A DNA stretch of 34,009 bases from positions 1 through 34,009 of the forward strand of contig VBJS01000053.1 in NCBI GenBank assembly GCA_005880055.1, in the 5' to 3' direction. Within the stretch, counting starts at the first letter, position 1, and each line of letters opens with the position of its first letter. Positions 25,522 through 27,117 of the stretch are shown here, in pieces. This DNA comes from Chloroflexota bacterium (GTDB lineage Bacteria > Chloroflexota > Dehalococcoidia > SM23-28-2 > RBG-16-64-32). Below the pieces are notes generated by a model. That model was not told where the DNA came from. It ran no database searches and saw only the letters and a list, made by a program, of their open reading frames with translations. The position numbers were made by a program, and so were the translations under genes.

Positions 25522-27117
25522 ATGAGCGTCCGCACTCGCTATGCCCCCAGCCCAACGGGTGAGCCGCACCTGGGCAACATCCGCACCGCGTTCTTCGACT
25601 GGCTGCTGGCGCGGCACTACGGCGGGCAGTTCATCCTGCGCATCGAGGACACAGACCAGGCGCGCTACGTGGAGTCCGGAGTCGGCGCGCAGATGGACGC
25701 GCTACGCTGGCTGGGCCTGCAGTGGGACGAGGGGCCAGACGTCGGCGGCCCGCACGAGCCATACGTGCAGTCCGAGCGGCTCCCGCTTTACCACAGCCAT
25801 GCCGACCGCCTGCTGGAGGAGGACAAAGCCTACCGCTGCTACTGCTCGCCGGAGCGGCTGGACCAGGTGCGCAAGGAGCAACAGGCCCGCAAGGAGCCGC
25901 CGCGCTACGACCGCCACTGCCGCGACCTCTCGTCCGAGGAGCGGCGTGCCCAGGAAGCGGCGGGCATCACGCCTGTCGTTCGATTCAAGACGCCACCGGC
26001 CGGCGAGACGCAAACGCAGGATGTCCTGCGCGGCGAGGTCACCTTCCGGAACGAGACGCTGGACGACTTCGTGCTGCTCAAGTCGGACGGCTTCCCGACC
26101 TACCACCTGGCGAGCATCGTGGACGACCACCTTATGGATATCACGCACGTGCTGCGCGGCGAGGAGTGGTTCCGGAACGAGACGCTGGACGACTTCGTGC
26201 TGCTCAAGTCGGACGGCTTCCCGACCTACCACCTGGCGAGCATCGTGGACGACCACCTTATGGATATCACGCACGTGCTGCGCGGCGAGGAGTGGCTTTC
26301 CAGCTTGCCCCGTCACGTCCTCCTATACGGGGCGTTCGGCTGGGAGCCGCCGGTCTTCGCACACCTCTCAACCATACTGGGGCCGGACCGCGCCAAGCTC
26401 TCGAAGCGGCACGGTGCCCACGCGGCGCTGGAGTACCGGGAGCAGGGCTACCTGCCGGACGCCGTGGTCAACTTCCTCGCACTGCTCGGCTGGTCGCTCG
26501 ACGACCACACGGAGATCATCGACCGCGCGACGCTGGTCAAGCACTTCGACCTCGACCGCGTTCTGCCCAACCCGGCCGTCTTTAACGCCGACAAGCTGCT
26601 GTGGATGAACGGCGTGTATATCCGCGCGCTCCCGCCGGAGGAACTCGCCGACCAGGCCCTCCCGTTTCTCGAGCGCGACCTTGGCCGGCCGTTAGACCGA
26701 GCTCTGCTGCTTCGCATCGTCCCCCTGGTGCAGGAGCGCATCAAGCTGCTGAGCGAAATCACCGCGATGGCCGACTTCTTCTTCACCGGCGATAACATGG
26801 CCTACGACATCGAGACTCTCCTGGGCAAGAAGTACGGCGGTCAGCCGCGCCTCGCCGCCGACGCCCTGGGTGGCGTCATCGCGGCCATCGAGTCGGTTGA
26901 ACCGTGGACGCATGACGGGCTTGAAGCGGCCGTGCGCCCGCTGGCCGACGAAATCGGAGCGAAAGCAGGCGACCTGTTCGGCCTCGCCCGAGTCGCGATC
27001 ACGGGCAAGACGACGGCGCCGCCGCTCTTCGAGACGATGGAGGTGCTGGGCCGGGAGCGGACGCTGGCGCGGCTGCGGCAGGCCGCGGAGCGGCTGGAGG
27101 CGGCAGGACAAAGGTAG
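25522..27117 (+). CDS. gltX: Glutamyl-tRNA synthetase carrying a 42-codon in-frame tandem duplication in the catalytic domain
   Basis: - HIGH motif: [17 protein letters not shown].
- Core: [31 protein letters not shown], present twice.
- KMSKS-type motif: AKLSKRHG.
- C-terminal anticodon-binding region. Confidence 0.92.
   Translation: [531 protein letters not shown]
26044..26295 (+). repeat. Perfect direct tandem duplication, 2 x 126 bp (26044-26169 and 26170-26295), in frame within gltX
   Basis: I read both copies as identical, ttccggaacgagacgctggac...cgcggcgaggagtgg. Each encodes [42 protein letters not shown]. Confidence 0.95.

Follow-up and report, generated by a model that had tools for sequence, protein, structure and literature searches.

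Bacterial glutamyl-tRNA synthetase (GluRS) is represented by the structures of the T. thermophilus enzyme (1J09 and 1N78) and by 4GRI. In the T. thermophilus enzyme, Tyr187, Arg205 and Trp209 are reported to bind glutamate. A non-discriminating GluRS, which charges both tRNA-Glu and tRNA-Gln, has a residue other than arginine at the position of T. thermophilus Arg358 and goes together with the absence of GlnRS and the presence of GatCAB. Tandem sequence duplications within a protein were reportedly engineered by the Matthews laboratory in T4 lysozyme, where one copy is said to take the native structure while the other loops out. As to sequence assembly, an overlap of k rather than k-1 is used by the most widespread metagenome assemblers, and pure de Bruijn assemblers do not create junction k-mers, a junction normally needing read support. 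False duplications without any read support have been documented for metagenome assemblers (bioRxiv 10.1101/2025.04.22.649783).

Here we describe the gltX gene of a 34,009-nt stretch of Chloroflexota DNA (the window), in which a segment of the catalytic core is encoded twice in tandem. The explanation we favour is an error in joining sequence pieces, and a real duplication in the cell is the main reading to be weighed against it. The features of the gene and its flank are as follows.

25522–27117, plus strand: gltX ORF, 531 aa with the duplication and 489 aa without it (TIGR00464, PF00749, PF19269)
25567–25578, plus strand: HIGH-type motif H-L-G-N, residues 16–19, read from the sequence and its translation
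26026–26038, plus strand: first 13-nt direct repeat CTGCGCGGCGAGG (LRGE), which begins 18 nt before the start of the unit and is also present in the single-copy gene
26044–26169, plus strand: copy 1 of the 126-nt unit, residues 175–216, identical to copy 2
26152–26164, plus strand: second 13-nt direct repeat CTGCGCGGCGAGG, which ends 5 nt short of the end of copy 1 and recurs in copy 2 at 26278–26290
26164–26175, plus strand: novel junction GGAGTGG/TTCCGG (26169/26170), the sole adjacency that the single-copy gene does not have
26170–26295, plus strand: copy 2 of the 126-nt unit, residues 217–258, where the homologues align
26395–26409, plus strand: KMSKS-type motif K-L-S-K-R, residues 292–296 of the 531-aa product, read from the sequence and its translation
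27399–27472, plus strand: tRNA-Gln (CUG), downstream of gltX on the same strand
27480–27556, plus strand: tRNA-Glu (CUC), downstream of gltX on the same strand

The gltX gene and its duplicated segment

A preliminary description of this DNA had reported a perfect, back-to-back 126-nt duplication in a gltX gene, flanked by normal gltX sequence and adding 42 residues in frame between the HIGH and KLSKR motifs, next to tRNA-Glu and tRNA-Gln; each of these points holds. A string comparison of positions 26044–26169 with 26170–26295 shows the same 126 nt at both places and 0 mismatches. The gltX reading frame runs on through both copies and gives a product of 531 aa, so that 42 residues of the catalytic core are doubled between HLGN and KLSKR. 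The period-126 identity ends exactly at both edges of the unit, and there is thus no microhomology at the junction GAGTGG/TTCCGG. Tandem Repeats Finder reports a single array at 26026–26295, with a period of 126 and 2.1 copies, the extra 0.1 copy being the 13-mer CTGCGCGGCGAGG, and a k-mer scan found no second repeat of such kind anywhere in the 34-kb window.

The identity of the gene is clear from profile searches. The ORF at 25522–27117 scores 573.6 bits against TIGR00464, the equivalog model of bacterial GluRS (cut-off 289.95), and the C-terminal, alpha-helical anticodon-binding domain PF19269 is matched at residues 374–521 (E 4e-32). PF00749 and TIGR00464 each match the 531-aa product in two stretches. 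The models for GluQRS, archaeal GluRS and GlnRS all stay under their own cut-offs with the exception of NF004315, whose 262 (cut-off 250) is far under the gltX score of the same ORF. Both class I signature motifs, HIGH and KMSKS, are present and flank the Rossmann fold. A contiguous, single-copy catalytic core collinear with the GluRS model is found in P0001, the best database match (489 aa), and is interrupted in the window protein; taking one 42-aa copy out of the window protein yields P0001 residue for residue. In the alignment, the same 42-aa gap separates the window protein from P0001 and from all homologues.

Full-length alignments were obtained between P0001 and both 4gri_A (E 5.6e-131) and 1j09_A (E 4.6e-120). 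In the alignment to 1j09_A, the 42 duplicated residues correspond to residues 168–209 of T. thermophilus GluRS and include Tyr187, Arg205 and Trp209. The equivalent of T. thermophilus Arg358 is an arginine (R364 in P0001, R406 in the window protein) that is invariant across 49 relatives; taken as a lone criterion, this residue would point to a GluRS of the discriminating type. The genes for tRNA-Gln(CUG) and then tRNA-Glu(CUC) begin about 280 nt 3' of gltX, an arrangement that recurs in L002, L012, L013 and L016. At some Chloroflexia loci, glnS adjoins gltX.

Geometry of the junction

The single-copy form of gltX already contains CTGCGCGGCGAGG twice, 126 nt apart and both times encoding LRGE. 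The preliminary description had placed a 13-nt LRGE repeat before copy 1 and near the 3' end of each copy, with the junction away from it. We find the 13-mer at these places and the junction 5 nt past it, and add a point missing from that account, namely that the 13-mers are spaced by exactly one period of the repeat (126 nt). The duplicated unit begins 5 nt past the first 13-mer and ends 5 nt past the second. This pair is the only direct repeat of at least 13 nt in gltX. When all possible gltX duplications of 30–400 nt are enumerated, an identity run of at least 13 nt lies no more than 25 nt from the breakpoints in just 26 of 376,565 cases (p ~7e-5), and all 26 involve the CTGCGCGGCGAGG pair and a length of 126; over the whole window, such repeat-flanked duplications number 12 in 400,000. 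Because a match between period and spacing is so rare by chance, we conclude that the 13-mer pair guided the event. Both 13-mers encode LRGE in frame, and their spacing is therefore necessarily a multiple of 3, which makes the in-frame length automatic; we reject that length as a sign of selection.

Slippage promoted by the 13-mer had been suggested earlier. Slippage or unequal crossover within the 13-mer predicts TCACC in the middle of the array, where the window has AGTGG, and both are rejected. With R as the 13-mer, a crossover inside it would be expected to give R-TCACC-U'-R-TCACC-U'-R-AGTGG, and the observed junction lies 5 nt beyond the homology. Slippage-type products have their junction inside the direct repeat and unbroken periodic identity; here the period-126 identity covers exactly 126 nt, and 5 mismatched bases separate it from the 13-mer match.

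A real and very recent in-frame tandem duplication, carried by one strain or subpopulation of an uncultured soil Chloroflexota (Dehalococcoidia-like), is possible, and we give it appreciable though minority weight. The repeat is present in the sequence and is perfect, and the reading frame, the motifs and the remainder of gltX are intact. The period would suit a sequence-directed event, as would the position of the two breakpoints, each shifted by +5 from one of the identical 13-mers, and de Bruijn assemblers normally require read support for a junction. Ordinary slippage is nevertheless unable to yield the observed junction, and the automatic in-frame length offers no evidence of selection. 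The route proposed for a real duplication is speculative: sister chromosomes would break 5 nt downstream of both 13-mers and be rejoined independently of homology. A topoisomerase- or gyrase-type enzyme could be responsible, as could some other fixed-offset cleavage, end-joining or clustered template switching. Speculatively, cleavage at a fixed offset and sister-chromosome rejoining would fit the junction as well as a merge of sequence pieces by coordinates.

The period can also be written as 127-1, the k-1 overlap that two graph-adjacent unitigs would share if they were concatenated end to end. Assemblies are often run up to a maximum of k=127, some contigs of the related MAGs bear k127_ names, and an untrimmed overlap is expected to leave the structure A'-X-X-B'. 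We regard this origin as quite improbable and not supported, for it leaves the equal offset of the unit edges from the 13-mer pair (p ~7e-5) unexplained, and no strain SNP flanks the unit to make a branching node.

Single-copy counterparts

P0001 is encoded on two contigs of different assemblies, L001 (JGI 3300009012, Ga0066710_100002546) and L002 (ENA ERZ28573530, scaffold_120144). At gltX both have 99.6–100% DNA identity to the window, and each contains the 126-nt unit once, with identical sequence. Against the window with a single copy of the unit, the 3,310 aligned nt of L002 show 0 substitutions; its remaining differences from the window are the 126-nt repeat and a 23-nt indel. The same comparison with L001 gives 9 substitutions in 2,085 nt. 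The unit and its immediate surroundings are free of them, and within gltX every one is synonymous. Two near-identical contigs without the repeat, one of them free of substitutions over 3.3 kb, argue against a real duplication. The single-copy relatives show that the duplication is not fixed; its absence from the window's own sample does not follow from them.

Wider searches gave the same picture. The other 119 homologues among the 120 best protein matches listed are 471–513 aa long, and no repeat occurs among those 120 matches. A scan for close direct repeats found no in-gene repeat in about 160 related gltX loci, whose sources were JGI metagenomes and genomes at species level. L027 and L048 gave unusually long tblastn spans; these were considered as insertions and rejected, as they hold gltX followed by glnS. 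A degenerate 32-mer across the junction had no match in either of two large DNA collections, metagenome_contigs and genome_contigs, and an exact look-up of the 531-aa product found it not on record. When 104 aa around the repeat served as the query of a second protein search, all matches were fragments of at most 181 aa, none near-identical and none duplicated. Exact look-up of the 69-aa downstream ORF gave a match only in L002, and look-up of the ORF at 1492–2463 gave none. No second gltX or glnS belonging with the window came to light, and the nearest species-level genome has only 78% identity in GltX.

By these comparisons, the duplication is private to the window sequence. If GluRS had long carried a functional insertion or domain duplication specific to this lineage, that would account for the preserved reading frame and for nothing else. 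The preliminary description had taken the identity of the copies as an argument against an ancient insert, and had noted that relatives might carry the same insert as a family feature. The copies are indeed 100% identical in DNA, the same protein exists without the insert at 99.6–100% DNA identity, and neither the listed homologues, nor the related loci, nor the sequence collections contain a repeat or its junction. A family-level or lineage-typical insert is rejected, the near-identical contigs and all relatives being single-copy. An old insert is thus excluded, and we put its probability next to nil.

Neighbouring structural differences

The set of near-identical contigs used for comparison consisted of L001/L164, L165, L166, L002 and L163. 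Relative to this set, three private structural differences lie within 2.1 kb of the window, at 24152, 25058 and 26169, the last being the repeat junction. Over a further 17 kb or so of comparable window sequence, there is no other indel longer than 3 nt, all differences there being substitutions or of 1 nt. The two differences upstream of the repeat are deletions:

24151–24154, no strand assigned: point of a private 46-nt deletion, relative to L001, L165 and L166
25057–25060, no strand assigned: point of a private 37-nt deletion, relative to L001, which splits a minus-strand FAD-binding monooxygenase gene

Three large indels within 2.1 kb, with no accompanying point substitutions, make an abnormal mutational spectrum, which counts against a real duplication. 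The deletion at 25058 frameshifts the FAD-binding monooxygenase gene, which is an intact 419-aa ORF in L001; exact look-ups of the two fragments of the split gene found them not on record. At the same site, L002 has a different deletion of 14 nt with the same left edge. L165 (ERZ27315255, k141_4921726), a contig of an independent assembly, ends exactly at window position 25058. Its end is the window's terminal ...CTCTCGCAT (...CGCAT), the last T of which is found neither in L001 (CAC) nor in L002 (CTT), and the window at 25058 equals the end of L165 abutted to position 9538 of L001. The site is thus resolved differently, or not resolved, in three of four assemblies.

At 25058, then, the window has the appearance of two pieces set end to end, and a comparable joining error 1.1 kb downstream is therefore plausible. 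The same site can be turned in favour of a real duplication, as it has at least three alleles across assemblies and could be a true indel polymorphism. A true 37-nt deletion allele, present in two samples, could explain why two assemblies share the T at 25058. Nor are the comparison contigs free of errors: at window position 27747, where it looks chimeric, L002 joins a lipoprotein signal peptide onto a MerR gene, and L001/L164 carry a 1-nt frameshift in DUF3108.

Proposed origin of the repeat

The preliminary description had left a choice between a very recent event and an assembly artefact; the single-copy state of near-identical contigs and relatives agrees with that choice, and the evidence added here favours the artefact. 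We hold it most likely, and on balance probable from the sequence comparisons, that the 126-nt repeat is a local assembly or joining artefact and that the gene in truth has the unit once and encodes 489 aa. We favour this reading because the repeat is private, a contig with zero substitutions lacks it, it clusters with two further private indels that break ORFs, one of these coincides with the end of an independent contig, and the junction is impossible by slippage.

In the mis-join that we propose, positions 24.1–26.3 kb of the window would have been stitched from short pieces. Joins at 24152 and 25058 would have dropped 46 nt and 37 nt, respectively, and a third would have kept a 126-nt overlap twice. 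The pre-existing 13-nt CTGCGCGGCGAGG may have steered the mis-registration: the end of the left piece (...R-AGTGG) would have been laid on the first repeat (R-TCACC), with 13 of 18 positions matching, and continuation with the right piece would give exactly the junction observed. As de Bruijn assemblers invent no junctions, post-assembly merging, scaffolding or gap-closing must be assumed. The coordinate-based merge is a deduction on the behaviour of such software, and the joining step itself we infer. No contig of the other assemblies ends at 26044 or 26169, and L001 and L002 are continuous there.

Predicted consequences for the protein

The proteins with and without the insert were modelled with AlphaFold2, using an alignment of 49–50 sequences:

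P0001 (single-copy form): 489 aa, mean pLDDT 89.2, pTM 0.85, duplicated region 90–96
Window protein: 531 aa, mean pLDDT 79.0, pTM 0.78, residues 176–216 (copy 1) about 25

In the 531-aa model, copy 1 forms an unstructured loop and copy 2 occupies the native position, while neighbouring elements also lose confidence. The choice of copy is biased, MAFFT having put all homologues on copy 2. In principle, a tandem repeat lets the chain take any register that loops out 42 residues, and the duplication might therefore be tolerated. Competing copies of a strand-helix-strand element with substrate-binding residues, in an essential enzyme, would be expected to be harmful.

If the duplication is real, the protein could survive by such a choice of register, with the extra 42 residues looped out. 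The prediction is favourable to a real duplication in that the native fold is still obtained, built from copy 2 with copy 1 pushed out; this result is biased by the homologues aligned to copy 2, the enzyme is essential and binds glutamate through residues of the unit, and model confidence falls. The fuller proposal, that a real duplication arose by cleavage at the fixed 5-nt offset and that what is probably the strain's sole GluRS still functions with a duplicated strand-helix-strand active-site module, strikes us as unlikely.

Discussion

If the repeat is an artefact, as we favour, the gene calls for the 531-aa gltX, the split FAD-binding monooxygenase and a truncated small ORF need correcting, and positions 24.1–26.3 kb of the window are best treated as unreliable. 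When a metagenome contig shows a perfect in-frame repeat in an essential gene, validation at the level of reads should precede biological interpretation. If the repeat is real, the window encodes a rare natural aminoacyl-tRNA synthetase, an essential enzyme, with a freshly duplicated active-site module. It would then hold moderate interest with regard to protein evolution and to homology-independent mechanisms of duplication, and would capture in nature the way in which Rossmann-fold enzymes tolerate or exploit the duplication of an internal module. Even so, it would still be a private variant, probably transient and deleterious.

Like the bacterial GluRSs of TIGR00464 with structures 1J09, 1N78 and 4GRI, the window GltX has the full-length architecture of the family, and it alone, among the members examined, has the equivalent of T. 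thermophilus residues 168–209 twice in tandem. With tandem duplications mediated by short direct repeats, through slippage or RecA-independent sister-strand exchange, the window shares a period equal to the spacing of a 13-nt repeat; unlike them, it has its junction 5 nt past that repeat, with AGTGG in place of TCACC, and so lacks the junction structure that defines the class. The duplications engineered in T4 lysozyme are likewise in-frame tandem repeats of secondary structure, and the AlphaFold model has copy 2 native and copy 1 extruded. Here, in contrast, the duplicated piece is a 42-residue strand-helix-strand part of a Rossmann fold with active-site residues, for which folding and activity are putative. 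The false duplications and minority-haplotype calls described in bioRxiv 10.1101/2025.04.22.649783 came from long-read assemblers and mostly involve repeats longer than the 126 nt of the window, and the window resembles them in having a direct repeat seen in a single assembly, next to other local structural discrepancies and in a population with strain heterogeneity.

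Differences from near-identical contigs

At window position 24152/24153, 46 nt are missing relative to three near-identical contigs of other assemblies (L001, from JGI 3300009012, L165 and L166), and a minus-strand ORF of 99 aa, called in all three, loses its start through this deletion, which is private to the window. Short heptamer tandem repeats (4.3 copies of an ACAGGGA-like unit and 2.3 copies of GAGGAGC; 24161-24212) lie directly past the deletion point, close to the 3' end of an FAD-binding monooxygenase ORF. The gene to which that ORF belongs, encoding 419 aa in L001, is broken in two by a private 37-nt deletion at window 25057-25059.

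Fragments of the split FAD-binding monooxygenase gene in the window
24213-25058, minus strand, ORF
24968-25555, minus strand, ORF

The near-identical contig L002 (ERZ28573530 scaffold_120144) instead carries a 14-nt deletion at this site, sharing its left edge with the 37-nt deletion of the window, and L165 ends exactly there, with the variant T that the window has. Either assembly tends to go wrong at this site, or several indel alleles really exist there.

The DUF3108 gene, which encodes 244 aa in the window and likewise in L165 and L166, is shortened to 223 aa in the JGI contig (L164 3781-3839, grouped with L001) by a 1-nt difference within an A run at window position 16783. The window is therefore not the faulty side of every discrepancy.

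L002 parts from the window at window position 27747 (L002 3333-3334). There, a lipoprotein signal peptide and lipobox (..LALAFVACSDE..) are fused directly to a MerR-family gene in L002, whereas in the window they lead into a low-complexity linker and then a CarboxypepD_reg-like domain. L002 looks chimeric at this point, or the strains differ in gene content.

Large-protein cluster

Large proteins, probably secreted or regulatory, are clustered in window 26-15631.

Features of the cluster
26-1633 and 12416-15631, minus strand, NosD/beta-helix proteins
1492-5947, proteins with thrombospondin type 3 repeats and beta-propeller
5964-9932, adenylate/guanylate cyclase-AAA-TPR protein, 1322 aa
9929-12385, subtilase

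Surroundings of gltX and tRNA discrimination

Repeats occur upstream of gltX in two of the loci compared: at least four copies of a 97-nt unit about 335 nt upstream in the closest species-level relative (L003 1650-1997), and an array repeating every 36-37 nt immediately upstream in a Caldithrix MAG (L060 4680-4859). In two Chloroflexia MAGs, a glnS-like gene directly follows gltX (L027 6459-7127; L048 6660-8370) and appears split into two ORFs, possibly by frameshifts in long-read assemblies.

The order gltX, tRNA-Gln(CUG), tRNA-Glu(CUC) is found again in several Dehalococcoidia MAGs, with a GltX identity of only 62-64%; it was not found in the examined relatives with 72-78% GltX identity.

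Positions of the tRNA-Gln(CUG) and tRNA-Glu(CUC) pair
27399-27556, window
2985-3142, L002
7697-7852, L012 (Dehalococcoidia MAG)
5229-5383, L013 (Dehalococcoidia MAG)
5217-5373, L016 (Dehalococcoidia MAG)

Arg406 of the window GltX (nt 26737-26739), corresponding to Arg364 of P0001, the 489-aa single-copy GltX encoded on L001 and L002, aligns with Arg358 of Thermus thermophilus GluRS, and an arginine is kept at this position in all 49 of 49 relatives. Although a tRNA-Gln gene adjoins, the alignment hints that the window GltX may be a discriminating GluRS, because its arginine occupies the position of T. thermophilus Arg358, according to the literature the determinant discriminating tRNA-Glu from tRNA-Gln.
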